IMG/VR virus record: IMGVR_UViG_3300043393_000115
Coordinates: 1 to 30,013 of that record
From: a virus
Lineage: Duplodnaviria; Caudoviricetes
Reading direction: 5' to 3' (one strand)
DNA: 30,013 nt
Shown: positions 7,565-30,013 of the stretch, in pieces
Layout of the letters: every line of letters starts with the position of its first letter
How positions within the stretch are numbered: position 1 is the first letter of the stretch
The notes under the pieces: generated by a model
Told to the model about the DNA's origin: nothing
Database searches by the model: none
What the model saw: the letters and a program-made list of their open reading frames with translations, nothing else
Made by a program: the position numbers and the translations under genes

Positions 7565-7624
7565 TTTATGATTGTGGTATGTTACAAACTATCAAATCAT
7601 AAATTATCACAGGGAGTGTACATT

Positions 7625-9975: not shown

Positions 9976-10014
9976 TTAATAAAACCTAAAACCATCTTAA
10001 AAGGATTTAAGATT

Positions 10015-12315
10015 ATGGCTAGGAAAGCTCCGAAATTAGCGCGTGAAGCACGTCTTGCATGCGAAAAGTGGCGCGAACACTTTAAATACAACATAGATTT
10101 ATATCATGAGATGCACACCTTCATTCTTGGCCAGCAATGGAGCCAAGACGAAGAAGACGACATGATTAATACTTTCCGAAAAGTCCCCATGACTGCGAAT
10201 AAGCTAGGGGCTATGTCTAATTCCCTTTTAGGTGAGCAGCAGCAAAACACACCGCAGTTACAAGTAGTTCCCATGACGAACTGCGACGAACAAACAGCTC
10301 ACCTTCGCGAAATAATAGTTAAAGATATCGTCTTCTCAACGGATGCAAAGATTGCTTATCAAACTGCAGCAGCACAATCTGCTAATGGTGGCTATGGGGC
10401 ATACTTCATCGGCACAGACTACAAATCCCCGCGCTCTTTTGAGCTCGACATCATATACGGCTATTTCAAAGACTCAACAAGAACTTACTTTGATATAGGT
10501 GCTGAAAAGCCCAATAAGACAGACGGAATGCATGGCGGATATATAGTTCGCATGAGTCGCCAAAAATTCAGAGAACTGTACGGCAAAGAGCTTGAAGAAA
10601 AAGTATCAAGGTCCATGGCGCCAACTGCCAGCAAAGAAGAAATCGCATTAGCTGTACAGCCTTCCGATGGTGACGATCCATTCACTTGGGCTGATAATGA
10701 AGCAATAACACTTCTGCATCACTTTAAGCGTAAATATGTCAAAGACACCCTTTATAAAATGTCTAATGGTAAAAGCTATGACCAAGATGAGCTTGACGAA
10801 CTAATTGAGCGCTCAATTATAATTAACAAACGTCATGAACGTGAAGAATTCGACCAGATGCAAGAAGCAGCCCTTAATGAAGTCATGGGAATGCCCCAAC
10901 AGCAATCACAAGGAATGCAGCAACAAGAACAAATGCAAGGCATGCAAGAAGAGCAGCAAAACCCTGAAATGGCTAATCCTAATGAAGTGCCTGAGGAATT
11001 AGATGAAGGCCTAATGACCCTGTGGGATGACGGGGAACCTGTCAGAATTGAAGATAGCAAGCCCTTTAAATCTTATAAGATTATGCACTATGAAATAGCA
11101 GGGGATTATATTTTAGAAGAAGAAGAGTTCCCATCCGAAGATATCCCTGTAATCTTTGTTGATCAGAATTCTTATTATGATAAATCCGGTAAGCAAATAT
11201 GCAGATCATTCTTGGGGGATTGCAAAGATATACAGCGTTACATTAACTATCTTAGAACGCAATCAGCTTATATCTTAAAAGTCAGTAGGTATGACCAGTT
11301 CATGGGTTCAAAACAAAACGTTCAAAGCTTAGATACGCAAAGAAACTGGCGTGACCCGAATTCTATACAAGGACTTTTAACTTATGATGAGTCGCAAAGT
11401 GGCGCTAAGCCTGAGCAACTCCGCGCACCTGAGCTATCGCAAAGCCTTATCCAGCAGTATGAGCTTGCTATTAATGACCTATACTTGGCCACAGGATTAT
11501 ATCCAACAAGAATGGGTCAGCAAGGAAACGAAGTATCTGGGGATGCAATTGACGCTCGAACCAGGCAAGGCTCTTACGCAACTTATGTTTATTTTAACTC
11601 TATCAATCGCGCAATTGCCGCAGGTGGCGAAATCGTTAATCAAATGATACCTAGAGTTTATGATTCTGAGCGCGTATTAACACTTATGATGCCTGATGAG
11701 GGAATGAAGAACATAACCATCAATAAACAAGCTGATGAGTACGGTGAGCTTATTGAAAACGATATTCGTAAAGGCACTTATGAAGTTCGCCTTAAACCAG
11801 GCCCAAGTTATGAGGGACAGAAAGAACAAGCATTACAATCTCTACAGCAAGTCCTACAGGCAAATCCTGAAACCTTTAACCTAGTTGCAGACCTTTATGC
11901 CGATAACCTGCCTCTAGCTAACAACATAGAGATTAGAAACCGACTTAAAACAATGGTGCCTCCTCAGATTATCGAAGCCGGAAAGACAGGAAAAATGCCG
12001 CATGAAAATGGCCAAAACTCACCTTCCCCGGAAGAGCAAGCCATGCAAATGCAGCAGCAACAGATGCAGATGGAGATGCAGTTTAAGCAGCAAGAAATTG
12101 AGATTAAGAAACAAGAATTGCAATTAAAAGCTCAGCAACAGCAAATAGATTTAGAGATTGAAAAGCAAAAATTACAAGCTGAAGAGATGGAAGTTCTAGG
12201 CCAAATTGAAGAACAAAAACTACGCTACTTAGCTGAAACAAATAGAACAGAAAGTGATACATCCATTGCTCATGCTAATAACTTAGTTAAGATTTTAACG
12301 CATAAAATTGGCTAG
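10015..12315 (+). CDS. P22-like portal protein
   Basis: 766 aa after terL; GQQW, KDIQRYINY, SGDAIDAR, GTYEVRLKPGPSY motifs; Q-rich coiled-coil C-terminus. Confidence 0.93.
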   Translation: MARKAPKLAREARLACEKWREHFKYNIDLYHEMHTFILGQQWSQDEEDDMINTFRKVPMTANKLGAMSNSLLGEQQQNTPQLQVVPMTNCDEQTAHLREIIVKDIVFSTDAKIAYQTAAAQSANGGYGAYFIGTDYKSPRSFELDIIYGYFKDSTRTYFDIGAEKPNKTDGMHGGYIVRMSRQKFRELYGKELEEKVSRSMAPTASKEEIALAVQPSDGDDPFTWADNEAITLLHHFKRKYVKDTLYKMSNGKSYDQDELDELIERSIIINKRHEREEFDQMQEAALNEVMGMPQQQSQGMQQQEQMQGMQEEQQNPEMANPNEVPEELDEGLMTLWDDGEPVRIEDSKPFKSYKIMHYEIAGDYILEEEEFPSEDIPVIFVDQNSYYDKSGKQICRSFLGDCKDIQRYINYLRTQSAYILKVSRYDQFMGSKQNVQSLDTQRNWRDPNSIQGLLTYDESQSGAKPEQLRAPELSQSLIQQYELAINDLYLATGLYPTRMGQQGNEVSGDAIDARTRQGSYATYVYFNSINRAIAAGGEIVNQMIPRVYDSERVLTLMMPDEGMKNITINKQADEYGELIENDIRKGTYEVRLKPGPSYEGQKEQALQSLQQVLQANPETFNLVADLYADNLPLANNIEIRNRLKTMVPPQIIEAGKTGKMPHENGQNSPSPEEQAMQMQQQQMQMEMQFKQQEIEIKKQELQLKAQQQQIDLEIEKQKLQAEEMEVLGQIEEQKLRYLAETNRTESDTSIAHANNLVKILTHKIG

Positions 12316-12351
12316 ATTTACAGGTTTTTAACAATACAAGGAATGTATGTT

Positions 12352-13242
12352 ATGGCTACAGAAACAAGCAGTATCGATGAATTATTAGTGAGCGAGATAA
12401 CATCTACTCGCCCAGCAGCTCCTGAAACGCAATACGAACCTGAAGATGAGACTTACGATGAACCCGTTTCCGGTAATGCAAGCAATGATGTCTCAGAGGA
12501 CTCACAAGATGAAGGTGAGGAAGAACCATCAGAGCAAGACGCCAGCGAAGAAAGCCCCTCAAAAGAGCGCGAAGTTGACGATTATGGGAATGCTAAGAAA
12601 GCTCCTAGGACTTACTCAGAAGAAGAAGTAAATGAAATGTTTCGTAAGCGCTTTAAAAATCAAGCGCCAGAGGTCCAGCAACAAATGCAGCAACAACAAG
12701 CCCAAGGAACTGGATTTGAATATAACCCAGAATCTACTGAGAGTTGGCAAACCCAGTTAGAGCAGTTTGTTGAAGCAACTATCTCGAAAGTATCTCAAAA
12801 GCAAGTTCAAGCACAACACCAGCAACGCGAAGCACAAGCGCAAATGGAGTTTGAGGACAAGTTCACACGTGGCATGGAAAGGTTTAGCGACTTTAGAGAC
12901 GTGGTTGGAGCGGCTCAGATTGATGATCCTATGACTTATGCGCTCAGAGGCATGAACGACCCGGCGGCCTTTATCTATGCTGCTGCCAAAAGACAGCCCC
13001 AAGAGCTATCCAGGATATCCAATATCCAAGACCCATATGCCAAAATGGTTGAGATGGGGAAATTAGAGGAGCGTATGCGTAAAACAGCAGCTAGCACCTC
13101 AGCGCCTAGACCTATTACCCGGGCCCGGGAAGATGGTTCTATGCCTATTAACAATGCTAAGAAAGAGGCGAGCATCGAGGACTTAATAGCGAAATCTGAC
13201 GCAAAAAGGCGCGCACAGTTGGTTGCTAAAAGGGGTAGGTAG
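12352..13242 (+). CDS. scaffolding protein (start MATETSS)
   Basis: Acidic disordered N-terminus, helical Q-rich core, basic C-terminus; lies between portal and coat. Confidence 0.8.
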   Translation: MATETSSIDELLVSEITSTRPAAPETQYEPEDETYDEPVSGNASNDVSEDSQDEGEEEPSEQDASEESPSKEREVDDYGNAKKAPRTYSEEEVNEMFRKRFKNQAPEVQQQMQQQQAQGTGFEYNPESTESWQTQLEQFVEATISKVSQKQVQAQHQQREAQAQMEFEDKFTRGMERFSDFRDVVGAAQIDDPMTYALRGMNDPAAFIYAAAKRQPQELSRISNIQDPYAKMVEMGKLEERMRKTAASTSAPRPITRAREDGSMPINNAKKEASIEDLIAKSDAKRRAQLVAKRGR

Positions 13243-13249
13243 ATGTTTA

Positions 13250-13295
13250 GTAAGCATCACCAACCTTGGTGCCAAATAACCCAGGTGATGCTTAC
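13250..13295. terminator. 12-bp inverted repeat between the convergent scaffold and toxin genes
   Basis: GTAAGCATCACC / GGTGATGCTTAC; no strong U tract. Confidence 0.5.
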
Positions 13296-13325
13296 GGTAT
13301 GGAATTTTAAGTGGTTTTTGTATGT

Positions 13326-13610
13326 TTACAAGATATATTTTTTGAGTTCTCTATAGAAATTCTCATGAACACCAAGAGTGTATAAAGTTCTGCTCTCAGC
13401 ATCCCATTGATAAGAAATTAAATATTCTTGTGAATTTATCTTAAATTTATATACAAAGAAGTTACGCAAATCCCCTGCTTTCTCTTCGCCTATTTTTGGA
13501 TTTTTTACTATGTTTTCTATCGCATCGTCTACGCATATTTTAGCGTTTTTATGCAATTTTTTGTACGCCTTTTTAAAAACAGGCATCCATTCTATTTGTA
13601 TGCTATTCAT
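13326..13610 (-). CDS. relE: type II toxin, RelE/ParE superfamily (start MNSIQIEW)
   Basis: FKKAYKKL...NPKIGEEKAGDLRNFFVYKFK...LGVHENFYRELK; overlaps the antitoxin end. Confidence 0.9.
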   Translation of the reverse strand: MNSIQIEWMPVFKKAYKKLHKNAKICVDDAIENIVKNPKIGEEKAGDLRNFFVYKFKINSQEYLISYQWDAESRTLYTLGVHENFYRELKKYIL

Positions 13611-13830
13611 TACGTCCTTCAAAATGAAATGGTTCTGACAGTGACTTATCCTGCTTTGCCGAAATTAAAGTATCCCTTATAAACTCGATAGGTAAATCAG
13701 GGTTGTCTAAGGCGCATTTTCCCAAGGTCGCCCAGAACTCTATCTGCGATGGAACGGATCTAAACTCTGAATTGGCCACCATTTTTGCATCGTTATATAT
13801 TTTCTCGCTAATCCTAATTGGTATTCCCAT
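13603..13830 (-). CDS. ParD-like (ribbon-helix-helix) antitoxin (start MGIPIRIS)
   Basis: IRISE...RSVPSQIEFWATLGKCALDNPDLPIEFI family pattern; upstream of the toxin. Confidence 0.88.
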   Translation of the reverse strand: MGIPIRISEKIYNDAKMVANSEFRSVPSQIEFWATLGKCALDNPDLPIEFIRDTLISAKQDKSLSEPFHFEGRNE

Positions 13831-13857
13831 CTCTATTCCTCTGTTTTGGTAATGTAT

Positions 13858-13873
13858 TGCAACAATTGTAGCA
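13858..13873 (-). promoter_or_regulatory. TA promoter/operator
   Basis: Near-palindrome TGCAACAATTGTAGCA containing a minus-strand extended -10 TGCTACAAT. Confidence 0.55.
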
Positions 13874-13935
13874 TTCAATGATTGATAATACTACCAATGA
13901 TTGATATTAATTAAGTCGCGACCAATTACACCATT

Positions 13936-13964
13936 TTGACAATAATTGTAGCGATAGTTATTCT
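13936..13964 (+). promoter_or_regulatory. sigma70 promoter for the coat gene
   Basis: TTGACA-N17-TATTCT. Confidence 0.7.
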
Positions 13965-13970
13965 ATGAAC

Positions 13971-14034
13971 TGACGTGTAAATCTCAAGCCCCGTCACTTG
14001 AAAATATTAGCGTGTATCGTCTTTCCGCAAAGAC
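13971..14034 (+). ncRNA. tandem pseudoknot-like cis element in the coat 5' leader
   Basis: Two units of CGTGTA plus a hairpin whose loop is complementary to the 5' flank. Confidence 0.5.
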
Positions 14035-14091
14035 AAAGGATGAAATTGTTTTCTAATTTTAATCGTTGTCATTGTATAAGGATCATACAAA

Positions 14092-15333
14092 ATGGCTAAT
14101 ATTATGCAAACAACACAATATGTGTTGGATGATGTATTCGTGCGCTTTTGGAATTCTCTCGCTTTCGCACGCACGGCGAATAGAAACCTTGAAGGTGACT
14201 TCAAAAACCTACGCTTCGCAACTGGCCAAACTGTTAACTACCGTCTAGAAGAAAGATATCTAGCTGGTGAAGGTGCAACAGCGACAGCCGAAGCTCGCGT
14301 TCAGGTAATAAGACCTTTAACAATATCCAAGCAATTCCGTACCATGATTGAGTACACAGGGTTTAACTTAACCTTTGATCGTGCTCGTGATGAACCTTAT
14401 CTAGAAATGGCAAATGCACCTCGTGCTAAGCGTTTAGCTAACATGGTTGAAGGCTTCATTGCTACAGATAACTTACAAAAACAAGTTTATCAAGCAGTCG
14501 GAACTCCTGGTGTTCCCGTTGATTTCAACACCATATTAACTGCCGATGCTTACATGACAGAACTTGCTATACCTGAAGATGGAAAAAGGTATTGCGGTGT
14601 TCCTCCTCGTGTGTCTGCTAACTTAAACAGCAACTTGTACAACGTGTTTAATAATACAGTCAACACCGGCGCATTGATCGACGGCTTCATAGGTCACCTG
14701 TCTGGCTTTGACTTCTTTAAGACTAACTTCTTAACAAGGCAAATAGCTGGTGCTGGACAAGCTGGTGGTACTCCTCCTGCTGGATTTTCACTAGCTGGTA
14801 CTGTGACCAACGGACCCATAACAGGCGGTAACACTATAGCCTTAACAGGGTTGGTAGCATCCACTGTCGTGTTCAATGAAGGCGATATAATTGAGGTTGA
14901 TGATGCTGCAGGCGTGTTCATGGTTAACCCATTAACTTATGAACCTTTGCAACAACGTGCCCAGTTCGTAGTGACAGCGCAGGTTATATCAACTGGCGGC
15001 GGTACTGCAAACGTACCGGTGAACCCAACAATCGTTATCTCTGGGGCCAGACAAAATATCTCTGCTGCCATTCCTAATGGTGCTCAGATGTTACTGCGTT
15101 TATCACATAACGTATCTATTGCTTATCACACTCAAGCAATCGTGTTTGCAGCTCCTCCAATAAAAGAACTTAGAGGAGGCGTTGAAGCTGTTACCCGTTA
15201 TAGCGACCTATACAAACTAGCCATGACTTACTCATTAGGTGCGGATATTCGTAACTATGAGCAGCTAGACCGTATAGACGTTATCTGCGGTGTTGCTATC
15301 AATCCAGAGTTTGCAGTTCGTATCTGCTCGTAA
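14092..15333 (+). CDS. major capsid protein (P22 coat-like)
   Basis: 413 aa; MAN start, GQTVNYR, IGHLSGFDF, AYHTQAIVFAAPP, RIDVICGVAINPEFAVR. Confidence 0.93.
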   Translation: MANIMQTTQYVLDDVFVRFWNSLAFARTANRNLEGDFKNLRFATGQTVNYRLEERYLAGEGATATAEARVQVIRPLTISKQFRTMIEYTGFNLTFDRARDEPYLEMANAPRAKRLANMVEGFIATDNLQKQVYQAVGTPGVPVDFNTILTADAYMTELAIPEDGKRYCGVPPRVSANLNSNLYNVFNNTVNTGALIDGFIGHLSGFDFFKTNFLTRQIAGAGQAGGTPPAGFSLAGTVTNGPITGGNTIALTGLVASTVVFNEGDIIEVDDAAGVFMVNPLTYEPLQQRAQFVVTAQVISTGGGTANVPVNPTIVISGARQNISAAIPNGAQMLLRLSHNVSIAYHTQAIVFAAPPIKELRGGVEAVTRYSDLYKLAMTYSLGADIRNYEQLDRIDVICGVAINPEFAVRICS

Positions 15334-15399
15334 CTCACATGCGGTTGACACTTGCCATTTTTAGGTATGTTTCAACCGCATGCTTCTTTAAGGATAAAG

Positions 15400-15603
15400 A
15401 TGCAAGAAATAGACGATTCACACGTACTCTATCTTGGGAGAGTAATCCCAAAATCCGATTTTAGAGTATTCATTTATGGGTATGACGGCGCATTAAAACT
15501 CGTTGACACCTATGAGGAATATGAAATTTACATGGAAACGGGCAATTGGTTTCCAGAACTTAAAGATGTGCCAGAAAAAAAACCCCGTAAAAAAGAGGGA
15601 TAA
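15400..15603 (+). CDS. hypothetical small virion-region protein (start MQEIDD)
   Basis: AAGGA RBS before ATG 15400; basic tail. Confidence 0.7.
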   Translation: MQEIDDSHVLYLGRVIPKSDFRVFIYGYDGALKLVDTYEEYEIYMETGNWFPELKDVPEKKPRKKEG

Positions 15604-15605
15604 AA

Positions 15606-16547
15606 ATGGCCTACACATTCAGAGATTTTGCATTCCAGGTTTATAGGCTAATTAATGCCTCAAACCCTACAGTGCCGCTACATGGTGATGACGAAAAGCT
15701 TTGCTTGCAAGTTTTAAATCAGCTTATGCAATCCTATGCCTCTACAGGCCTTATGCTTACCATTGCAAAGACAGTGACATGTCCTATTAATATTGGCGAT
15801 AATACTATTCGCTTTGTGGGAAATAATTATCCAACGGATACTATTGTCAGAGAGCTTGTAACACTAACGCTTAATTCACCTTCTTTTAGCGTCGCAGATG
15901 GCACAATTTATAGCATTGGAGATTTGGTCACAGGGAATGGCATACCAGCCTTAACAGCCATTGAATCAATTGACGGAAACCTAATAACCCTAACTAACGA
16001 CTCAACACTGACAGGGTCATCAACCCTTACCTTTACTCAGCCCGTGGTCATTCCAGGCATTGTGTTTATAAAAGGTGGAAGGCTTTCGAATCTAGATAGC
16101 GCATGGTTAACATTATCAGGGGTTACTTACCCTCTAATTGATAAATCTAGGGATGAGTACTTAGCAGCCTGGAAATATGAGCCTCTCCAAGGACTTCCTA
16201 GGTTTGCTATAACTTTCCCAGACACCGAATGGGTGGATGTTAAGTTATATCCGGCACCTTCCCAATTCTTTCAATTTTTTGCTAGATGCAAACTGCAATT
16301 ATCTGAGTACACAAAAGACTCTGATATGTCGAATTTGCCACAGTATTACATCCGATATCTGCTTTATGCCTGTGCAAGAGATGTGTCGCTCTTTAAAGGC
16401 CGTGCTGATGCGTGGACGCAAAGGCTTGAACAAACCTATCAAGAAGCACTAAACATCATGGTAGCTTCTAGTGAGGTTAATTTATCTATAGCAGGTGATG
16501 AGCAATCGCTTTTAAACGGAGCGTGGCGAGTTAGGGCAGGTGTGTAA
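15606..16547 (+). CDS. putative head-tail adaptor (P22 gp4 position)
   Basis: Helical N-terminus CLQVLNQLMQSY, LYPAP, LPQYYIRYLLYACA; synteny. Confidence 0.72.
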   Translation: MAYTFRDFAFQVYRLINASNPTVPLHGDDEKLCLQVLNQLMQSYASTGLMLTIAKTVTCPINIGDNTIRFVGNNYPTDTIVRELVTLTLNSPSFSVADGTIYSIGDLVTGNGIPALTAIESIDGNLITLTNDSTLTGSSTLTFTQPVVIPGIVFIKGGRLSNLDSAWLTLSGVTYPLIDKSRDEYLAAWKYEPLQGLPRFAITFPDTEWVDVKLYPAPSQFFQFFARCKLQLSEYTKDSDMSNLPQYYIRYLLYACARDVSLFKGRADAWTQRLEQTYQEALNIMVASSEVNLSIAGDEQSLLNGAWRVRAGV

Positions 16548-18304
16548 TGGCCATTCAACCGCTCGGAATATTTACCTTTTACGATAAACAGCGATTCACG
16601 CAGTTCGGTGCGATGGACTGTGCTAATTTCTATAAAATAGAAGTGGAATCTGCTAAGAAAAAACAAGCCTTATATCCTGCTATGGGTCGAAAACATGTCA
16701 ATTTCTTTAATGAGAATCGTCTTGTATACATCCATCAGCCACGGTTTATATTTAAGTCCATTGATTATCTTTATGTTGTTGTAGGCACGCAATTATTCCA
16801 ATACGACAGATTCTACAATGAAAGGCTCGTGGGATTTGTCCATAATACTGGCCCTATTTGGTGGGCGGTTTTGCCTGTGGGAAATGTGGTCTATATAATG
16901 CTAACCACCAATGGTAAGATATTTGTGATAACTGAAGATGCAGGGACAATTAATTATGAGCAAGCTACAGGAACTGGTGTCCCGACTAACCCGCTTTATG
17001 TGGCGGCATTCGGAAACAGGTTTGTGGTTAGCGATGCTAATACTCCTGATTATTTCTTATCTCAAGTTAACTTAGCTGGAAATTCTAGCACTTGGTTTAA
17101 TGTTCCTGGGGTACCAGGAGGCTCATTATTCAACAGAGCCTCAGGAAGAATAGGGCAATTTGCAGTCCTTCATAACCAGCTATACATCATGTGCGATTTT
17201 ACAACCGATGTTTGGTCTAATATCCCAACCCAGATTACTGTTTCAGGCTCAACTGCAGAATTCCCTTGGAAGTTAAACACATCCTATAACTTTGATTACG
17301 GGATAGCTGACCCTTTATCTTTATCGATAGACTTTGGTCGCATGGTATGGCTTGCTAAAAACTCCAATGGCCTTGTTAGCTTTATGGCTTCCAATGGTTC
17401 GCAGCCTCAAGATATCTCAACGCAGGCCATTAATGTACTCCTTGAGCAATCAGAAGCTGAAGAAGGACAAGTTAATCCTTTCTTAAACCTAGATACAGAT
17501 GGGTTCTTATACCAATACGAAAACACCGTGTTTTATAGGGTTTCAGCAGGTAATTATGATGATACCCAACTGCTAGACCCACCAGATACATCTGCTGATT
17601 CAATCGAATTTAACTTTGAAACGCAGACCTGGGCGAGAGTTATAGAACTAAATGGCTCAAGGTGCCGTATACAAAAACACACATTTTTTAATAACAAGCA
17701 TTTAGTAATCATACAAAAAGACAACGCAGTTTATGAAATGGCAGGAAATATCTATCACAATGAATTAAGAACACCTGATACAGACCCACAAGCAACCAAT
17801 GCCTTTACTAAATACCCGATGCGTTATGAGCTAGTAACCACGCAAATTTTCTTAGACGATTACGCGGAGTTTATAGATGATTACGTTGAAATCGATTTTG
17901 TCTTTGGTGATAGGACGTTTTACAGGAATAATGCGCCGTTTGATAATACGGTTTTTATTGTCGATGAAACTTCGACTGCCGATGTGCCTGTATATCTTCT
18001 TACGGAAGATGATGCATTTATTATCGAAGAAGGTTCAAATACGCCTGCCTTTGATGACAATCACTACAATGCGTTATTCAAGCCTCATATTGAGTTATTT
18101 TATTCTGATGATGGTGGTGTTACTTATGAAGCTGCTGATTTGCGTGAATTTAGCCCCTTAGGGGAGTACAGGTGGCGTATGCGCTGGTATGAGTTAAGTA
18201 TCAGCCGAAATCGCTGCTATAAGCTTGTATGCGTATCTAGTGCGCCAATAGTCATTTTAGGTGCTGTCCGTAACACAAGGCGCGCAAGTGGAGGGGCTAA
18301 CTAA
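16547..18304 (+). CDS. tail nozzle / packaged DNA stabilization protein (P22 gp10-like)
   Basis: Beta-propeller-like; ISTQAIN, YSDDGGVTY...LGEYRWRMRWYEL C-terminal motif. Confidence 0.85.
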   Translation: MAIQPLGIFTFYDKQRFTQFGAMDCANFYKIEVESAKKKQALYPAMGRKHVNFFNENRLVYIHQPRFIFKSIDYLYVVVGTQLFQYDRFYNERLVGFVHNTGPIWWAVLPVGNVVYIMLTTNGKIFVITEDAGTINYEQATGTGVPTNPLYVAAFGNRFVVSDANTPDYFLSQVNLAGNSSTWFNVPGVPGGSLFNRASGRIGQFAVLHNQLYIMCDFTTDVWSNIPTQITVSGSTAEFPWKLNTSYNFDYGIADPLSLSIDFGRMVWLAKNSNGLVSFMASNGSQPQDISTQAINVLLEQSEAEEGQVNPFLNLDTDGFLYQYENTVFYRVSAGNYDDTQLLDPPDTSADSIEFNFETQTWARVIELNGSRCRIQKHTFFNNKHLVIIQKDNAVYEMAGNIYHNELRTPDTDPQATNAFTKYPMRYELVTTQIFLDDYAEFIDDYVEIDFVFGDRTFYRNNAPFDNTVFIVDETSTADVPVYLLTEDDAFIIEEGSNTPAFDDNHYNALFKPHIELFYSDDGGVTYEAADLREFSPLGEYRWRMRWYELSISRNRCYKLVCVSSAPIVILGAVRNTRRASGGAN

Positions 18305-18603
18305 TGGCCATATTCTTAGATAGAGTGGATTCATCCCCTTTGCAGGAAACTAAATTCCCATTTGAATTTGAGTCCTGGGTAAGTAACTTAGTTGACTCAT
18401 TAAACAAAAATCTACAAGTTATCCAAGATGCACTAAACCTGTATAATAATGGATTAATAGCACCTAGCTTCACAACAGTAGAGATTGCGGCCCTAGACCC
18501 TGATTTAGACGATGGCGTAATCCTTTATGACAGCACATTAAATCTTTATGTCGGAAAAATAAGTGGCACATTAGTGCAATTCACAACAGCAGCTTATCCA
18601 TAA
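18304..18603 (+). CDS. small tail-associated protein
   Basis: TAATG coupling to the nozzle gene. Confidence 0.7.
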   Translation: MAIFLDRVDSSPLQETKFPFEFESWVSNLVDSLNKNLQVIQDALNLYNNGLIAPSFTTVEIAALDPDLDDGVILYDSTLNLYVGKISGTLVQFTTAAYP

Positions 18604-18632
18604 GGATTGGATAATACACAAGGAGTGTGACT

Positions 18633-19208
18633 ATGAGCTGGCTATCAGACTTTTTCAATCCAGGCAGGGCGTATAAATCCGCAGGCCACACTATGGATAA
18701 GTATTATCAAGAGGGCAAAGGATATACACAGCCCTATATGGACGCATTAATGGACCCGCAGGGTTTGCAAAATAAGTGGACTCAAGGGTATGAAACTAGC
18801 CCCTATGCAAAGCAAGCTATGGATATGGCATCTCAGTCAGGGCTTAATGCAGCCTCTTCAATGGGCCTTATGGGTTCCACTCCTGCACTCCAAGCAATCC
18901 AAGGTGGGGCGTCCAATATCGCCATGGCTGATAGGCAAAATTATCTAAATGACTTGATGAATAAGTATCAAATGGGTGCAGGAATGGCCACAAATGCTCA
19001 AGGTAACGCTATGCATATGGGCGATGCAATGGGTGGGCTTAAATTCGGTGAGCGCCAAGCAGGTTCCAATATGATTGGCCAAGGGCTTAATTTTGCAGGG
19101 AATTTGGCAGGCAATTGGCTAACGGGCGGATTTGGTCAAGGGGGTATGGGTCGCGGTATGTTCCAGCCTAACCAAGACTACATGTCAGGCCGCGGCCGAG
19201 GATACTAG
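18633..19208 (+). CDS. DNA ejection protein, gp7-like (start MSWLSD)
   Basis: G/A/M/Q-rich; SPYAKQA...AASSMGLMGS; synteny. Confidence 0.75.
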   Translation: MSWLSDFFNPGRAYKSAGHTMDKYYQEGKGYTQPYMDALMDPQGLQNKWTQGYETSPYAKQAMDMASQSGLNAASSMGLMGSTPALQAIQGGASNIAMADRQNYLNDLMNKYQMGAGMATNAQGNAMHMGDAMGGLKFGERQAGSNMIGQGLNFAGNLAGNWLTGGFGQGGMGRGMFQPNQDYMSGRGRGY

Positions 19209-19217
19209 GAGAAAATC

Positions 19218-21769: not shown

Positions 21770-21771
21770 AT

Positions 21772-21840: not shown

Positions 21841-21849
21841 AATAACCTC

Positions 21850-22074: not shown

Positions 22075-22090
22075 AAATAATCCTATTCTC

Positions 22091-22216: not shown

Positions 22217-22226
22217 TCTATATGCC

Positions 22227-22448: not shown

Positions 22449-22626
22449 GATTAATTATAGTTGATTGTAGCACGATTTGGGTAAAATAAAAGCATTATTA
22501 TTTTGTTTGTAATCAGATATTTATGAGGATCTTTTGAGAGAGTTATTGTAGAATCGAAACTTCAGCCGGACATATGGGTTAGCGCCCTGCCCGGCTTTAT
22601 CATCATGTCTACGGGGAAAGAATATC

Positions 22627-23136
22627 ATGTCTATAAAAAAAATAAAGCACATATTTGACCAACTACCTAAAATAGTTAGAAAACATCCTGAATTAACTCC
22701 AAAAGATAAAATCGTCTTCCTAGAAATATACGATGTTTTAAAAGATAAACCTTACGCATGCCACAGAAATGAAACCTTAGCCAAGGCAACTAACTTGTCT
22801 GTTCGTACTATCGCAAGAGTTCTAAATACCCTTGAGCGGCTAGGAATTCTAATAAGAGAAGGGATTTCATTTAATAGACGATTTTTTCTGGGTAAATTAT
22901 TTACTGTTTCCGAATATTTATATACCAAAATTACTCAGACTAAAAAAAATTTATCCACCTGTGCCAAAAAGGTAGTAGGCATGAGCCAGGTTGGCAAACA
23001 TACTAAGAACTTCTTTAATAAGAATTATAATAAGGCTCCTTCTGAAGAGGAAACGATATACAAATGGTACAAAGATAATTCTAATGTAGAAATGCCGGCT
23101 TATCTTAAGGATTTATTTCCGGAACCTATAGTATAA
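22627..23136 (+). CDS. winged-HTH protein, replication-initiator-like
   Basis: LTPKDKIVFLEI...NETLAKATNLSVRTIARVLNTLERLGIL; Asn/Lys-rich tail. Confidence 0.75.
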   Translation: MSIKKIKHIFDQLPKIVRKHPELTPKDKIVFLEIYDVLKDKPYACHRNETLAKATNLSVRTIARVLNTLERLGILIREGISFNRRFFLGKLFTVSEYLYTKITQTKKNLSTCAKKVVGMSQVGKHTKNFFNKNYNKAPSEEETIYKWYKDNSNVEMPAYLKDLFPEPIV

Positions 23137-23386
23137 ATTTAGAAGATTAATAAACAATTTTAAGAATCAAGTTGGGTCTTGAGGGTTCGACTCACTCTTA
23201 AATGGAGAAATGAATAATGAGGGATAAAGTATTTACCTTAATAATGATTTTTATACTATTGGGACTTTCTTTATGTATTGTGCTAGACCCCATGGATATC
23301 GACGCAGCACATCAGAATATATTTTACAAAATAGAAACTTGGATTTGGTAATGCGTTTAACGAGAAAAAAGCGAAGGGTAGCGAAA

Positions 23387-23776
23387 ATGAACGAACACAA
23401 TTCATTACTTAGTACGCGAGAGGCCGCAGAAATTGTAGGCTATAGCGTAAGACACATACAAACTATGATAAAGAAAGGAAAGCTTTCTGCAATAAGGGAT
23501 GAGGCAGGCAATTACATCATCGATAAGTCTGAGTTTTACCGCGTATTCCCTGATGCGAATGCTAAGCGAACAGAGACGAAAAAAGAAGCGCTGGAAGTTG
23601 AAATCACGTATTTGAAAGAAATGGTTGCTGAAAAATCACGCCAAAATGAGTTCTTAGTTCAACAGCTACAAGAATCAGCCACTGAGAAGACTGCTTTGAT
23701 TGAGACGCTTAATAGTAATCAACGGTTACTTGAACACAAAAGCAAACCTAGAAAGAAATTCTTAGGCTTGTTCTAG
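23387..23776 (+). CDS. excisionase-type HTH plus coiled-coil DNA-binding protein (start MNEHNSLL)
   Basis: LSTREAAEIVGYSVRHIQTMIKKGKLSA...YIIDKSEFYRVF; coiled coil ending RKKFLGLF. Confidence 0.78.
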   Translation: MNEHNSLLSTREAAEIVGYSVRHIQTMIKKGKLSAIRDEAGNYIIDKSEFYRVFPDANAKRTETKKEALEVEITYLKEMVAEKSRQNEFLVQQLQESATEKTALIETLNSNQRLLEHKSKPRKKFLGLF

Positions 23777-23859
23777 AAATTCCTCACATTTTTAATACCC
23801 CACTGAATTCGTTATACTAGATACCAGAATATAGAACGCTGCTTAAAAAGGATTTTAAG

Positions 23860-26043
23860 ATGGCAACTCCGATATACGTAAGAGGGTCTAACCCAGTTTG
23901 GAGCTTTGTTGACCTTCAAGGCAATCAATTCGATGATACGTTTTATATGTTCGTTCTGGAGAACACGCTGCCTTACGCGCCTGCAATGGTATGGCATGAC
24001 CCTTTCGGTAACGTGGTATGGACTAACCCTATACAATTCCTGGCAAATGGCACGCTGCCTATAGATATATTCTGGGATCCTGACATGGTCTACAGATTAG
24101 AATTCAGGCAAGGCCCAACACAATCAGACCCATTAATTTATCTTGTTGAGAATTACACTCCCGGCGGTGGCGGCGGTGGAAATCCTCCTATTGAAGAATT
24201 GGCAATTGTTACAGGGAACATGATTACCAACCCACAATTTTCTCTTGTGAGTTTTAGTTCCCCATTTACCTATTCGGGAAGTGCACCATCAGATGGTATA
24301 GCAGTAGCACCAGGCTGGGATTTAATATTGGCAGGGTCAGGTACTGTAGTACTTACGAAGGTTCCTCTAAGCAGTGTTGATCAGGTTCCTACGAACGCCC
24401 CATATGCACTTAGGATAACCTTAACCGGAAGCTGGACAGGAACTCCTTATTTAAGGCAAAGATTTAATCAAGCTGGAATGCTGTGGGCTAATACAAGGAC
24501 TCCTCAGCCTAATTCTTATGTTTCAGGTTCCATAACCGCAAGGGTTGAAAATATTCCTGTAAGCCTATTTACTAGGCTAGATGCATCTACTGGTGCACCT
24601 CAAGCTATCATTATTCCGTCATCAATTATTAACGATCAATATGACGTATATCCTGGCCAAAATGTTATGCCAGTTACAACCAATACGGACATACCGCCAG
24701 ATGCCTACATAGATTATAAAATATTTTTTCCAAATAATTCTGATATTTACTTAACTAGTATTCAGTTAGTTAAAAGTAATTTTGAATTACCCATACAATA
24801 TCCCTATGAGCAAGAAACTATTGAACGACAAGTTGACCATACGTTTCACTACTATCGTGAAAGTATTTTGTTTCAACCTAAGTCTAGTATTTTGACAGGA
24901 TGGGACTTTTCTCTTAATCCTTGGCAGTTTACAAGTACTACGAGTGCAGATTTGGCTAGTAATGCTTACACTGCTGACCAGTCAATTATCATCCAACAAG
25001 CTTATGTAGCCTCAGCTACTCCTAATAATATCCAAGTTGGACGTGGAACGGCTGCTCAGAATTATGGACTTAAAGTTACCTCAAAAACAGCCACAAACCA
25101 GTTCGCAGCATTGCAATACATTGACCCAGCAATCTGCAGACCCTACTGGGGAGGAACATTATCCTCCTTAGTCAAAGTCTTTGTTCAAAAGCAAAGTTCT
25201 GTTGGTGATTTACGCGTTAAAATGAAGCTTCTAAGAAGCACAGGAATTCCCACTACAACTAACCAAACATATCCGGTATCTTCCTGGTCAGCCTTGGGAG
25301 AGCCTTCTTATAACGGCGCATGGAGTGCAGTGTCTGCCGTTAATGACCCTGTCTATAATCTAGTGGCAGGGGAAAATATAATTACTTTTGACGGCTTTAA
25401 TTTAGCTGCAGCGACTAATGATAACGAGACACTAGCAATTATATTTTACACAATTGACCCCATGACTTCTTCTGGTACGCCTGATTTCATAATCTTAGAT
25501 AGTATATCTTTGGTACCTAATGAGTTCGCTATTGCAAGTAATCCACTCACCTTTGAGCAGACTTTGAAGGGGTGTGAATATTATTATGAGAAGTCTTATA
25601 AAACTATAGATTTGCCTGGAACTGTGACCCAACAAAATGCAATTTGTGCTCCAATGAATCCTTTCGCACTTACAGGTTCAAACCAAATTACTTGTGTGGC
25701 GCAAGATTTTGGTCATCAGTATAGAACGCCAAAAAGAGAGTTTTCATCAATTCCAACACTTACCTTTTATTCTGGAACGACCATCAATCCCAATACGGCA
25801 CAAGCCTACATTTATCATGCTGCTGGCGGAGGTCAAAATGACACCTTGGAGATTGTTTTTAACGATCATTTTACTGCTTTCGGATTCAATGATAGTAAAG
25901 GATTTTCATATCGAGCAATATTAACAGACGGTTCTTCGCCTTCTAGAATGGTTACATGTAGTTATCCAGGGGTAGCTACAGGGTCCATTGCGGGAGCTAG
26001 TCTTCTTTATCATTTCACATCAGACGCACGAATGGGAGTTTAA
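23860..26043 (+). CDS. tail fibre/tailspike-like virion protein
   Basis: N-terminal head-binding-like region (WTNPIQFLANG), beta-rich body, CEYYYEKSY motif. Confidence 0.75.
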   Translation: MATPIYVRGSNPVWSFVDLQGNQFDDTFYMFVLENTLPYAPAMVWHDPFGNVVWTNPIQFLANGTLPIDIFWDPDMVYRLEFRQGPTQSDPLIYLVENYTPGGGGGGNPPIEELAIVTGNMITNPQFSLVSFSSPFTYSGSAPSDGIAVAPGWDLILAGSGTVVLTKVPLSSVDQVPTNAPYALRITLTGSWTGTPYLRQRFNQAGMLWANTRTPQPNSYVSGSITARVENIPVSLFTRLDASTGAPQAIIIPSSIINDQYDVYPGQNVMPVTTNTDIPPDAYIDYKIFFPNNSDIYLTSIQLVKSNFELPIQYPYEQETIERQVDHTFHYYRESILFQPKSSILTGWDFSLNPWQFTSTTSADLASNAYTADQSIIIQQAYVASATPNNIQVGRGTAAQNYGLKVTSKTATNQFAALQYIDPAICRPYWGGTLSSLVKVFVQKQSSVGDLRVKMKLLRSTGIPTTTNQTYPVSSWSALGEPSYNGAWSAVSAVNDPVYNLVAGENIITFDGFNLAAATNDNETLAIIFYTIDPMTSSGTPDFIILDSISLVPNEFAIASNPLTFEQTLKGCEYYYEKSYKTIDLPGTVTQQNAICAPMNPFALTGSNQITCVAQDFGHQYRTPKREFSSIPTLTFYSGTTINPNTAQAYIYHAAGGGQNDTLEIVFNDHFTAFGFNDSKGFSYRAILTDGSSPSRMVTCSYPGVATGSIAGASLLYHFTSDARMGV

Positions 26044-26046
26044 AAC

Positions 26047-26382
26047 ATGGCTATACAATATAATGCTAACTTTATAGAAACAATGCCTTTTAGTGATGTT
26101 TGCGCACAAGTTAACTGTGCTGCATCAACAGAAGAAACTTTTACTGTCCCTGGCAGTGCAACCATCCAATACCAAGCCTATTTTGAATACGCATCCGATT
26201 CCAATGTTTTTATACGTTTAAATGGTACCCCTGCAATACCTGCGAGTGGCACTGTCGGAACAGAGCAGTACAATGAATTTAAGCCTATCAAACGATATGT
26301 AAAAGGCGGTGATGTGCTTCATTTTATTACCCCTGATACCAATGCTTATATAGGCGTATCACTAAGGCAACTTCCTGGCTAA
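26047..26382 (+). CDS. small beta-rich virion protein
   Basis: GGGAG RBS; position in the tail cluster. Confidence 0.7.
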   Translation: MAIQYNANFIETMPFSDVCAQVNCAASTEETFTVPGSATIQYQAYFEYASDSNVFIRLNGTPAIPASGTVGTEQYNEFKPIKRYVKGGDVLHFITPDTNAYIGVSLRQLPG

Positions 26383-26405
26383 AAATTAATTAATCATAAG
26401 GCTTC

Positions 26406-28226
26406 GTGATGAGTATAACGACAAGAAAGTTTAGCGAATTTACAGATGGTGGTGATTTAGAAAACTCTAATACTACCGTTGGCCTTGAAGGTGGTGCTAA
26501 TACTCGCTTTAACAATCCTTGGACTTTTTTAGCATCAGGTACCACAGGGGATAGACCAGCTCCAGCGGCTGCTATGTATTACAGATTGCGCTTTAACACA
26601 ACCCTTGGAAGTTATGAGTTCTATGACCCTGTATCACTGGCATGGGTACAATTAGAAGATTCCGGTGACATATCCGATTTAATAGCACGTCTTGCAGCAC
26701 ACACCATGGGTGATGGAGCGTCCATGATTGGTCTTCAAAACCAAACAGGGGTGACCAACAAGACAGTACAAGATTTAGCTAATGCTACCATAATAGCCCA
26801 GACCGATAATGGAACTTTAACTAATGGCCAGTTCATGGATGATTTGGCAAATGGAGTTATGTATAACACTGGTGGGGTCTTAGGGGCTGACGCTAATTTT
26901 ACGACCAATGGCACTGGCACTGTTTCAATCACGGGTCAATTAAATGTAGATAATTTAAGGCTGGATGGGAATTCACTTTCTTCTACAAATGCAGGTGGTG
27001 AATTATATCTGCAACCTAATCCAACAGGAGCTTTAATTACTGGCTCTACTGCAACTATAGCCCAATTGACCCCCTATGTCGGCGGGGCTGGTATTTTATA
27101 TATGATTGGATCGACAGCAATAGCGGATAATCCTAATGTGTACTTAATTGGCCTAGGAGAGGCACCATTAAATGTATGTGCTGCTTCCAATGCTTCTGCG
27201 GTTGGCAGTTATTCCCCACTTATAAACGGAAATTTTTTAGGGATATATGACTATCTTGGCGATGATGGAACAAGTCTTAGGTTAAGCGCCCAGGTCCTTT
27301 TTGCGGTAGAAGGTAGCGTTTCAACAGGCATAGTCCCCTCAAGATATATCATCAGAAATACTGATTCGTCAGGAAATTTTAATGATGCTCTTATAATAAA
27401 TGCAGATGGAAATGCCTTTTTTTTCAATAATATTTCTGGTAATAATTTCTTACCAGGCTACGCCACCACAGCAACGGCAGCTACAACTACCACTCTCACC
27501 GTTAACAGTAGATATCTTCAATATTTTACAGGGGTGACTACTCAGACCGTTGTCATGCCTGTGACAAGCACTCTGGTTCTAGGTCAATCTTGGCGTATAG
27601 TGAATAATTCATCAGGCGCTTTGACTATTAATTCCTCTGGGTCAAACTTAATATTAACGATGGCCGCAAACACGAGCGCTGAAATTACCTGTATATTAAC
27701 ATCTGGCACAACGGCTGCGTCTTGGAATTCGACCTATATTTCTGATGCGGGTTCTTCAGGAATAGTAAGCCCTGGAAATATCAATGAGCTTGCCTATTAT
27801 GCTGCTACAGGGAGTACGGTATCGGGCATTACGACGGCAAATAATGCCATATTAACCACGAATGCCTCAGGGGTTCCTTCCTGGACTGCCGCTACTTTTC
27901 CTATCACTTGGTCAGGGGTTCCGGGGGCCACCCAAGCGGCAGCAGTTAACAAAGGATATATAATACAAAATGCAGCTACTACGACGGTCACATTACCCTT
28001 AACGGCAGCCATTGGCTCTATAGTGGCCATAGCAGGCTTAGGAGCTGGAGGATGGGTATTAACGGCTAACACTGGCCAGACAATCAAGTTTTCACCATCG
28101 ACTACTTCAAGTGCTGGCTCGCTAGCTAGTACATCTCAGTATGACACTGTTGAAGTGGTTTGTATTACTGCAGATACTACATGGAGCGTACGTTCTGCAC
28201 CAGGATTAGGACTAACCGTCACTTAA
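26406..28226 (+). CDS. tail fibre-like protein
   Basis: T/G/S/N-rich; SGTTGDRP...LRFNTTLGSYEFYD, VDNLRLDGN, VTLPLTAAIG fibre motifs. Confidence 0.75.
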   Translation: MMSITTRKFSEFTDGGDLENSNTTVGLEGGANTRFNNPWTFLASGTTGDRPAPAAAMYYRLRFNTTLGSYEFYDPVSLAWVQLEDSGDISDLIARLAAHTMGDGASMIGLQNQTGVTNKTVQDLANATIIAQTDNGTLTNGQFMDDLANGVMYNTGGVLGADANFTTNGTGTVSITGQLNVDNLRLDGNSLSSTNAGGELYLQPNPTGALITGSTATIAQLTPYVGGAGILYMIGSTAIADNPNVYLIGLGEAPLNVCAASNASAVGSYSPLINGNFLGIYDYLGDDGTSLRLSAQVLFAVEGSVSTGIVPSRYIIRNTDSSGNFNDALIINADGNAFFFNNISGNNFLPGYATTATAATTTTLTVNSRYLQYFTGVTTQTVVMPVTSTLVLGQSWRIVNNSSGALTINSSGSNLILTMAANTSAEITCILTSGTTAASWNSTYISDAGSSGIVSPGNINELAYYAATGSTVSGITTANNAILTTNASGVPSWTAATFPITWSGVPGATQAAAVNKGYIIQNAATTTVTLPLTAAIGSIVAIAGLGAGGWVLTANTGQTIKFSPSTTSSAGSLASTSQYDTVEVVCITADTTWSVRSAPGLGLTVT

Positions 28227-28239
28227 AAAAGGATTTATT

Positions 28240-28815
28240 ATGGCCACTATAAATAGTGTAGGAGTAGGTCTATCAGGGGCTAGCGGCACTGGCTCTTTCG
28301 CAGGCACCACCTCTCCTACCTTTGTAACACCAACCTTAGGAGTAGCCACAGCCACAAGCATAGGCTTTGGGGGTAATACTATTCAGACCTATATAGCTGG
28401 CGCGACTTTCTCCCCTCTCCCTACGATAACAGCGGCTACGATGGGTGATTTATCAGTGTCTTATTCTGTTCAGACTGGTACTTATACTAAGATAGGCATA
28501 CTAGTCATGGTCAACATAGCCTTAACCTTTACACCAACGTTTACAACGGCAACAGGAAATTTGCAGATTTCTAATATGCCCTTTGCAGGGGCTGCCACTG
28601 GGTACTCTATTAACGTACTTAGTACTAGCTCGAATATGGTTTGGCCTGTTGGACGAACTCAAATGTGCGGGGCTATAATAAGTGGCACGACAAACTTGAT
28701 ACTTTCTTGTTTTGGGTCGGCTGTAAATGCTTCAAATTTTGCCATAACCAATTTGACTTCAGGGGTGGCTACAGCTATTACGTTATCAGGGCTGTATAGA
28801 ACAAGTACGGCATAA
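28240..28815 (+). CDS. short tail fibre / receptor-binding tip protein
   Basis: TSPTFVTPTLGVATATS shaft motif; GTYTKIGILVMV...ISNMPF tip motif. Confidence 0.72.
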   Translation: MATINSVGVGLSGASGTGSFAGTTSPTFVTPTLGVATATSIGFGGNTIQTYIAGATFSPLPTITAATMGDLSVSYSVQTGTYTKIGILVMVNIALTFTPTFTTATGNLQISNMPFAGAATGYSINVLSTSSNMVWPVGRTQMCGAIISGTTNLILSCFGSAVNASNFAITNLTSGVATAITLSGLYRTSTA

Positions 28816-28840
28816 TTTAACTACTAAAAGGAAATAAAAA

Positions 28841-29068
28841 ATGGCTGCAGAAATAAAAGCAATGCAAGATGCTTTGGAAGCATTTAAAATTAAAAAAACT
28901 GAATTTGTTATGCAAAAAGAACAAACCCAAGCTACTTTTCATCAATTAAGCGGAGCTGTCATTGTCTTAGAGCGCCTGATTGCCGAACATCAAGAAAAAA
29001 TAGAAAAAGAACTTAAAAAAGCTAGCGGAGAAGAGAATGGCGAAGTTGAGTGCGAAAACAAGGAATAA
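28841..29068 (+). CDS. coiled-coil protein, possible fibre chaperone
   Basis: Helical, charged; follows the fibre gene. Confidence 0.6.
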   Translation: MAAEIKAMQDALEAFKIKKTEFVMQKEQTQATFHQLSGAVIVLERLIAEHQEKIEKELKKASGEENGEVECENKE

Positions 29069-29261
29069 GCTTCCTAAAAGTGATTTTGGTCTGCCAGGGC
29101 AAAAAAAATATCCTATGCCTGACAAATCTCACGCAGCCAATGCGAAAGCACGCGCCACCCAAATGGTGGCCAAAGGTAAACTATCAGAATCCAGCAAAGA
29201 AAAAATAGACGCGAAAGCAAATCGAATTCTTGACGGCGGCAAAAGGGGAGCTAAGAAATGA
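29037..29261 (+). CDS. small basic phage protein (LPKSDFGLPG..KYPMPDKSHAANAKAR)
   Basis: Lys/Ala-rich; motif recalled from phage hypothetical proteins. Confidence 0.75.
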   Translation: MAKLSAKTRNKLPKSDFGLPGQKKYPMPDKSHAANAKARATQMVAKGKLSESSKEKIDAKANRILDGGKRGAKK

Positions 29262-29323
29262 AAGAACAAAGAAAAAATGATGATAAAAGAAATAGTGGTA
29301 AGAAAAATAAAAAGGGATGCTAA
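29258..29323 (+). CDS. 21-aa basic peptide MKEQRKNDDKRNSGKKNKKGC, not in ORF track
   Basis: GGGGAG RBS and ATGA overlap with the upstream stop. Confidence 0.5.
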   Translation: MKEQRKNDDKRNSGKKNKKGC

Positions 29324-29335
29324 AAGGAGAACATC

Positions 29336-29536
29336 ATGGCTTATGAAAATGCACCAATTAAAAGAAATGATACTTCCGGTGCTGACAGGAAAGTTAGAAC
29401 GGGTTATAATGAAGAAATTGATCGCGCCAAAAGCGCTAGAAATTCGCAGTTAACAGATTCCGACCCCATGATTGAAAAAGATGGATTTTTAGGCGTGGAT
29501 AATTTAGACAAAATGAGACGTAGAAAGATTAGGTAG
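29336..29536 (+). CDS. hypothetical protein
   Basis: AAGGAG RBS. Confidence 0.7.
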   Translation: MAYENAPIKRNDTSGADRKVRTGYNEEIDRAKSARNSQLTDSDPMIEKDGFLGVDNLDKMRRRKIR

Positions 29537-29562
29537 TTACTTTAAATCACAAGGAGTGTGAC

Positions 29563-30013
29563 ATGGCTATTACAGCGATAGGACGTTATTTTGTTGGCGA
29601 TCCAAACATTGTCTCTATAGTAACTACTGACAATTTAGCTACAATTACTACTTCTGGTTATATCACTACTCAGGCCGAGGAAATAGAAGCTCTGCAGAAT
29701 GGTGAATTCCAGTGGACTGATACTGATTTAGTATTGATGTATTATTCTCCTGCTCAAATAGGTTTTTTTGTCAGGGACGCTGATAACGATACATTTGATG
29801 CGTTAGATCCTGCTGGTGGCTTGGCTGACACTCTGCAAGACGGAGATATATTCGTAGGAAATGCCTCTAATATAGCAACGGGCGTTTCGCCTTCTGGTGC
29901 TATAACATTAACTAATGCTGGGGTTTTCGGGATTACTGCCGGCGCTATTGTTAACGCTGATATTAATGCGGCTGCAAACATATCGTTTAGCAAACTAGCA
30001 GCTCTTTCAAGTG
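29563..30013 (+). CDS. virion structural/fibre-like protein, truncated by the window end (MAITAIGRYFVGDPN...)
   Basis: AAGGAG RBS; frame open to the end; IFVGNASNIATGV...AIVNADINAAA fibre-like motif. Confidence 0.8.
   Translation, partial: MAITAIGRYFVGDPNIVSIVTTDNLATITTSGYITTQAEEIEALQNGEFQWTDTDLVLMYYSPAQIGFFVRDADNDTFDALDPAGGLADTLQDGDIFVGNASNIATGVSPSGAITLTNAGVFGITAGAIVNADINAAANISFSKLAALSS

Follow-up and report, generated by a model that had tools for sequence, protein, structure and literature searches.

GGA hairpin loops at late-gene Shine-Dalgarno sequences of a P22-like podophage family resemble CsrA operators

Why should a phage place the ribosome binding sites (RBSs) of its virion genes in the loops of small hairpins? 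The question is raised by virus record IMGVR_UViG_3300043393_000115 (positions 1 to 30,013; this whole stretch of 30,013 bases is called the window here), in which several late genes, including those for the portal and coat proteins, carry the GGA of their Shine-Dalgarno (SD) sequence in the loop of a short hairpin resembling the operators of CsrA (RsmA/RsmE), a protein that binds RNA. The window is 81% complete, has a G+C content of 39.4%, and is, by its gene content, a P22-like podophage: the late module is P22-like (terS, terL, portal, scaffold, coat, and Hc3 head closure), and the other genes include a Cro-like gene, an O-like initiator gene, a cold-shock gene (csp), and, on the opposite strand, RecE/RecT. 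Comparison with related sequences indicates that selection acts on the hairpins of roughly five core genes, namely, those for the coat, the portal, a gp7-like ejection protein, and a protein of 727 amino acids (aa), together with the last gene of the window. Judging from the sequences, we give repression of late-gene translation by host CsrA through these SD hairpins somewhat better than an even chance of being the explanation.

All 11 hairpins listed in a first-pass annotation of the window were read exactly (Table 1), and the RBSs of recE and of the gene at 7435, which it had described as lacking a stem, form 2-bp stems only. The GGA is located 5 to 16 nucleotides (nt) ahead of the start codon at all listed sites except 18594 to 18614, where it lies 29 nt upstream of the start and is not an SD sequence. 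Perfect stems of at least 6 bp were found at only 5 of the 722 GGA sites on both strands, all 5 just before late start codons. Beyond position 7500, stems of at least 5 bp enclose 6 of 18 start-site GGAs versus 4 of 285 other GGAs (Fisher P = 3e-6; the genes are related, so that P values overstate the significance). The predicted stem energies range from −1.5 to −9 kcal/mol, and the 28224 to 28240 and csp hairpins are absent from the centroid fold. The excess over shuffled sequences that the annotation implied was seen for the portal, whose hairpin was equaled in folding by only 2 of 200 dinucleotide shuffles, but not for the other nine hairpins (16 to 153 of 200). As a set, the hairpins exceed chance; one by one, they are weak.

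A coat protein search of IMG/VR gave 302 related stretches, of which the best 80 were retained (coat identity, 83% to 92%). Thirty near-complete relatives, taken as two overlapping halves, were combined with the window and 21 kb of a phage from a single-cell genome into a set of 32 phage sequences, the open reading frames (ORFs) of which were called with a purpose-made program; 392 kb of the 2.1-Mb single-cell genome (336 genes) served as the host comparison set. Identical upstream sequences were counted once, and orthologues whose start was not placeable within 15 codons of the expected position were left out. At intergenic starts with a GGA, stems of at least 5 bp occurred in 69 of 312 late genes, 6 of 100 early genes on the same strand, 10 of 153 genes on the opposite strand, and 8 of 113 host genes, the class counts being blurred by wrong starts that the program chose for some genes (repO and several helicases). 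When the 5' and 3' flanks of the late genes were exchanged, 3.6% (maximum, 6.7%) had such stems versus the 22% observed, and the late share was higher in 27 of the 32 genomes. The strict form of the hairpin, the CsrA high-affinity loop class modeled on RsmE affinity rules, was present at 104 of 737 late, 9 of 290 early same-strand, 16 of 661 opposite-strand, and 11 of 336 host starts, with the late genes higher in 30 of the 32 genomes.

By gene family, the strict form was most frequent at the five core genes (Table 1), reached 5 of 20 at the endolysin and also at the helicase, and was found in 0 of 29 Hc3 and 0 of 30 cro leaders. The endolysin and helicase genes both lie outside the window; endolysin start hairpins in four relatives (G012, G029, G030, and G034) have stems of 8 to 11 bp, and a loop close to the SELEX consensus, ACAAGGAUUGU, is found in four of the five strict cases. 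Relative to the flank-swap null, the z scores of the family stems were 6 to 9 for the portal, coat, gp7-like, and 727-aa genes and 4.6 for the 7625 gene. The portal and 727-aa stems are almost wholly different between phages while the pairing is kept, and an unpaired GGA in a 5- to 7-nt loop on a covarying stem was found for the coat, portal, gp7-like, 727-aa, and last genes, in support of the proposal that structure has been selected rather than duplicated. Among the late GGA starts of four outgroup podophages whose late modules are related or analogous (VvAW1, P26218, X14, and P22), 0 of 47 have such a hairpin. Chance pairing between an A-rich stretch that precedes the AGGA of the SD and a U-rich one that follows it is likely the true explanation for csp and 28240 and perhaps for the scaffold and post-coat sites, yet for the core genes it is refuted by the family z scores, the composition-keeping flank-swap null, and the absence in outgroups, and it is extremely improbable as a general explanation. 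What stands of the proposed morphogenesis regulon is a core that is smaller and looser than envisaged; three to five of the listed sites are probably lineage specific or chance, and within its family the window is exceptionally rich in such hairpins.

Several observations weigh against a common regulatory function of the late hairpins. Taken singly, most hairpins fail to reach significance in folding energy, and strict-form conservation is lacking at the scaffold, post-coat, csp, 7625, and 28240 sites. The best families reach the strict form in ~60% of the genomes, and none is universal; 5 of the 32 genomes have no late excess, and in one (G024) the strict form was found in 0 of 24 late genes. 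The predicted enrichment over early genes and over host RBSs was confirmed, but the early repO start has a borderline hairpin (5-bp stem, 7-nt GGA loop), the helicase on the early strand carries one (in G009, G010, G015, and G032, among others), and the host starts are themselves above their own null (8 of 113 versus 2.2%). In the window, ~12 late starts are without a hairpin (terS, terL, adaptor, Hc3, 99-aa, 391-aa, 458-aa, 111-aa, and 606-aa genes and small distal genes), and the 22074 gene, a counter-case overlooked earlier, has a 4-bp GGA stem. Finally, GGA is also the SD core, and its conservation alone is uninformative.

The bases around the GGA are more telling. The strongest SD sequence would place an A directly before the GGA. 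In the coat loops, this base is G in 40, U in 12, C in 8, and A in 2 cases, while CA is fixed ahead of it, and a C-G pair closes the loop in 63 of 75 coat leaders; the last-gene family has the same free base (N) before the GGA. Where the base before the GGA is not A, position −2 is A in 41 of 44 late hairpins (about half of which are from coat leaders and so are not independent) versus 31 of 78 host cases and 38 of 80 and 52 of 127 early cases. The RsmE/CsrA code consists of an ANGGAX hexaloop with the N looped out, or tightly bound AGGGA and AAGGA pentaloops, with C-G closing (PMC4005645), and the CsrA SELEX consensus has short stems, with a range of 10 to 63 nt for bridging between sites (PMC7652899). 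In agreement with the ANGGA loop class proposed at first, the late loops have the A(N)GGA core with a free N and the site overlaps the SD; the free N, fixed CA, and C-G closing match the RsmE/CsrA code, which argues for CsrA rather than plain SD structure.

A second GGA hairpin is present in 17 of 51 portal leaders, ~28 to 41 nt before the start (null mean, 0.9; maximum, 3), and none of the 17 has a start codon behind it. The spacing of the portal GGA pairs in the relatives is ~20 to 25 nt, and in the window the tandem at 18594 to 18629 has its GGAs 18 nt apart, in the reported optimal bridging range (PMC7652899). Two points count against a CsrA interpretation of these pairs: 14 of the 17 portal hairpins belong to one clade of a quick tree, albeit with at least two stem types, and no clear excess of second GGA hairpins was detected in the coat, scaffold, and 727-aa leaders. 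The pairs bear also on a protein-free alternative, in which weak hairpins with the SD as loop GGA set the translation rate or stoichiometry of the structural proteins or shield the SD from distant RNA. The low stem energies, the patchy presence among genomes, and the preference for intergenic, independently initiated starts (69 of 312, versus 19 of 265 overlapping late starts) are what such tuning would lead one to expect. Nevertheless, a free N next to a fixed CA, which costs an anti-SD pair, is not what it would predict, nor does it account for the non-SD GGA hairpins upstream of the portal or the absence of hairpins in the four other podophages, and we regard it as unlikely.

Under the favored hypothesis, host CsrA would bind the A(N)GGA loops and, until titrated away, keep the capsid, portal, and ejection/tail proteins from being translated. 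CsrA at sites that overlap the RBS excludes the 30S subunit. The stems seem too weak to shut off translation alone, from which we infer that a protein would clamp them. The targets would be the core genes and, in some relatives, the endolysin and helicase genes, with coupled downstream genes following, and a CsrA dimer could bridge two GGA loops where two exist (the gp7-like gene and, in relatives, the portal). A later, translational brake seems to be needed because the predicted sigma-70 promoter of the coat gene is near consensus and the conserved families include no recognized late activator; this promoter would have the coat gene transcribed by the host from the start of infection, and the brake would supply the delay. 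Release could come about by a flood of late mRNA that outruns CsrA after DNA replication or, as the replicative phase ends, through Rsm-type RNAs of the host. No host Rsm RNA was identified by a triple-GGA pattern, since a reversed control matched the single-cell genome at least as often.

The loops might instead be read by a phage RNA-binding protein that lacks similarity to CsrA (the product of a small ORF or a virion feedback repressor), or the phage Csp might melt the hairpins. The csp gene is present in 26 of the 32 genomes, several small conserved phage ORFs belong to no family, T4 has the translational repressors RegA, gp32, and gp43 (PMC3014915), and other phages, VvAW1 included, carry csrA alleles (PMC7366521). 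A search of the ESM Atlas with the 58-aa (7625) and 59-aa (3958) proteins gave no usable lead. In the family itself, csrA was found neither by Pfam at an E value of 0.001 in 38 virus records, nor at E values up to 10 in 32 records (the window, 81% complete, and 31 near-complete relatives), nor with a two-sequence hidden Markov model over 15,224 frames (best E value, 0.52), and the suggestion of a phage-encoded regulator is weakened accordingly. Moreover, the loop code is that of CsrA, host CsrA would bind such loops regardless, VvAW1 has its own csrA yet hairpins at 0 of 13 late starts, and melting by Csp is compatible with CsrA binding and is no true alternative. A phage factor is therefore distinctly unlikely in our judgment.

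CsrA could also act in the opposite direction, as an activator or stabilizer of late mRNA, or the late mRNA could be a sponge that frees host messages from CsrA. There are documented cases of activation by CsrA and of its protecting mRNA from RNase E (PMC7652899), and the coat mRNA is predicted to be abundant, with a structured 5' end. However, the sites overlap the SD, the classic position for repression, whereas the activating sites described lie upstream or open a stem that hides the SD (PMC7652899). A GGA-rich small RNA, which had been considered along with a csrA homologue, was not found either: the 62 sequences searched contained 6 unrelated clusters with four or more GGA loops of the CsrB/RsmZ type, none of them recurring and none in the window. 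This alternative is very unlikely.

Which CsrA the phage would meet depends on its host. Five coat matches were found in bacterial genomes, one of which is a whole 36.5-kb contig (83% coat identity) in the single-cell genome BBSC-SA01, classed as Legionellales UBA4722 (PMC7453286). BBSC-SA01 carries a canonical csrA located behind the aspartokinase gene, and csrA was above the cut-off in 78 of the 86 genomes of its order; on the basis of this one single-cell genome, the phage family likely infects Legionellales. Arguing against this assignment, the remaining four matches are in metagenome-assembled genomes of unrelated groups, which are likely misbinned contigs, and of the 86 genomes from the order, just 1 contains a close coat protein. 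A search with csp homologs indicated no host, and among cultured phages in the searched phage collection the best coat identity was just 28% (the VvAW1 coat is distantly related). One genome (G084, from the order of G039) has eleven CsrA-family matches. The tyrosine integrase (PF00589) and S24 repressor (PF00717) domains, by which temperate lambdoid and P22-type phages with a cleavable CI repressor would be recognized, were found in 0 of 32 records (serine integrases were not searched for), suggesting that the family is likely nonintegrating.

In Legionella pneumophila, CsrA governs the switch between the replicative and transmissive phases (PMC5338858). A more far-reaching and only tentative possibility is that virion assembly is wired to this switch in Legionellales, with a pseudoknot-stabilized coat mRNA and assembly triggered by Rsm RNA. 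In such a scenario, constitutive host promoters would make the late mRNA, a tandem pseudoknot cap would keep the coat mRNA stable, and CsrA would hold it untranslated while the bacteria multiply inside a protist; upon nutrient exhaustion, titration by Rsm RNAs would lead to assembly and lysis in a vacuole full of sibling cells.

Phages normally time their late genes with transcription factors of their own. If host CsrA does time capsid, portal, and tail synthesis, a global RNA-binding regulator of the host, in Legionellales the life-stage switch, would give a phage a new way of reading host physiology. The operator type itself is textbook; the novel part, for which no precedent was found in the open-access literature searched, is its use at phage morphogenesis genes with CsrA supplied by the host. 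The characterized operators hcnA-RsmE of Pseudomonas fluorescens and glgC-CsrA of Escherichia coli have in common with the phage sites the A(N)GGA(X) loop of 5 to 7 nt, short stem, SD overlap, C-G or U-A closing, and a further loop site upstream that is near enough for bridging (PMC4005645, PMC7652899); the phage sites differ in being predicted only, in their morphogenesis targets, in their many AU-rich stems closed by A-U, and in being mostly single. The L. pneumophila CsrA regulon (fleQ and lqsR), likely from the same host order, likewise has A(N)GGA loop sites at the RBS, often paired, but these belong to chromosomal genes supported by electrophoretic mobility shift assays and RNA immunoprecipitation sequencing, and phage targets were not found in the excerpts of that article (PMC5338858). 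The description of Legionella phage LME-1 has 0 occurrences of "CsrA" (PMC12407071). The phages with csrA alleles (F116, H66, VvAW1, Bcep22, and others) also tie CsrA to phage biology; they carry the regulator, with no targets described in the review passages considered, whereas the family studied here carries sites without csrA, and in Serratia 39006 RsmA/CsrA controls prophage activation (PMC7366521). T4 shares timing at the level of translation and a leader pseudoknot (RegA, the gp32 pseudoknot operator, the gp43 hairpin, and SD-sequestering late hairpins) but differs in that the RegA sites are unstructured, the late hairpins have the SD sequestered by the stem and not exposed in the loop, and the regulators are phage proteins (PMC3014915). 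The family is common, as judged from the 302 IMG/VR stretches, has no cultured member in the searched phage collection, and offers a rare point of access to the phages of an order for which hardly any are known.

The coat gene is preceded by 120 nt of conserved sequence. A TTGAC-type promoter lies ahead of the leader in 63 of 75 cases, in 47 of which the first of two structured units begins 6 to 7 nt past the −10 box; in the window, unit 1 coincides with the predicted transcript start (13972). In each unit, a 5' NNNG-N-G(-UA) element pairs with CC-NNN in the loop of a downstream hairpin, and units 1 and 2 were found in 70 and 73 of 75 leaders, respectively (75 of 76 were used, L002 being left out). 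When 40 leaders were aligned, 89% of the cells of a 21-pair structure comprising the units and the SD hairpin were paired and 14 pairs had changed on both sides; 0 of 500 shuffles were as high and slid controls gave 35% to 53%, although the structure was derived from the same leader sequences, so that these controls are lenient. We infer from this model that both helices of each unit would form together. The units likely stabilize or gate the coat mRNA, and a put-like antitermination role is also conceivable. Rfam 15 had no match in the window at E values up to 1 and two chance-level matches (E values, 1.3 and 5) in leader L081. When other viruses were scanned loosely for the leader motif, with 4 of 64 parts covered, 120 loci were obtained, none with two units, and 6 supplementary files of PMC10690425 contained none of four short motifs of the leader (files 1, 2, and 4 were not searched, and the leader may be there). 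The name "tail fibre," applied earlier to the gene at 23860, has no profile or PDB support; a search with its 727-aa product gave a single locus.

Table 1. Hairpin sites, coat leader elements, and associated genes in the window
Feature	Position	Strand	Remarks
Portal SD hairpin	9994–10013	+	AAGGAU hexaloop, 7 bp; conserved class, strict form in 10/29 genomes
Portal protein gene	10015–12315	+	PHROG 156, E 1e-81
Scaffold SD hairpin	12334–12348	+	AGGAA pentaloop; weak conservation, strict form in 3/32
Scaffolding protein gene	12352–13242	+	PHROG 8865; start 12352 agrees with relatives
Coat sigma-70 promoter (predicted)	13936–13964	+	TTGACA-17-TATTCT
Coat leader unit 1	13972–14001	+	GACG-N-G pairs with CCGUC (13991–13995) in loop of UCAAG/CUUGA hairpin; predicted pseudoknot
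Coat leader unit 2	14009–14034	+	AGCG-N-G with CCGCA in loop of GUCUU/AAGAC hairpin; predicted pseudoknot
Upstream AAGGAU	14036–14041	+	42 nt ahead of coat SD GGA; possible second site; hairpin in 1/71 only
Coat SD hairpin	14072–14090	+	AAGGAUC loop; C-ANGGA-G in most relatives; strict form in 20/32 genomes
Major capsid gene (P22-coat type)	14092–15333	+	PHROG 283, E 1e-35
SD hairpin of 67-aa post-coat gene	15385–15400	+	Start 15400; weak conservation, strict form in 5/30
Upstream non-SD GGA hairpin	18594–18614	+	Spans stop of 99-aa gene; GGA 18604, 18 nt from SD GGA 18622
gp7-like SD hairpin	18617–18629	+	C-AAGGA-G pentaloop; strict form in 14/32 genomes
Ejection protein gene (likely, P22 gp7-like)	18633–19208	+	Position and 34% identity in 4-row alignment; no profile match
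SD hairpin of 727-aa gene	23842–23859	+	AAGGAU hexaloop; strict form in 19/31 genomes
727-aa conserved late gene	23860–26043	+	Tail-associated likely by position; no PHROG, Pfam, or PDB match
Last-gene SD hairpin	29547–29561	+	Strict form in 10/34 family members; gene from 29563 onward, cut at window end
Weak C-AGGGA-G hairpin, 3 bp	7608–7618	+	Before 58-aa first late gene (7625–7801); strict form in 3/26
Weak site before 191-aa gene	28224–28240	+	Start 28240; no stable fold, no conservation
Weak csp site	6149–6160	+	Cold-shock gene 6164–6361; strict form in 2/26, probably chance

Some further features of the window deserve mention. Six copies of an 11-bp palindrome-like motif (at 3663, 3680, 7482, 7499, 13859, and 13939) are located in three divergent-promoter regions, recE/cro, 7435/7625, and antitoxin/coat promoter, and are likely operators of the Cro-like protein (3727 to 3924). 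The idea that Cro blocks the coat promoter in a conserved manner was considered and dropped, since palindromes common to the cro region were found in 2 of 26 relatives (null, 1 to 3). The csp gene encodes a CspA-family protein, lies just ahead of the late region in the genomes that have it, and may provide an RNA chaperone for structured leaders. Between the scaffold gene and the coat promoter, a ParD-like antitoxin and ParE-like toxin pair is inserted on the minus strand (13326 to 13830), which agrees with a carrier state like that of a plasmid, no tyrosine integrase or CI having been found in the family. Another insert on the plus strand (22627 to 23776), between the ejection and 727-aa genes, consists of an HTH_36 replication-initiator-like gene and an excisionase-like gene with helix-turn-helix and coiled-coil regions; the two genes are present in 3 and 6 family members, and the insert looks like a captured small-plasmid module. 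The replication initiator gene contains direct repeats of the CCCCAACCGGCCAACTTG type (5186 to 5205, 5246 to 5270, and 5275 to 5297), which are likely origin iterons.

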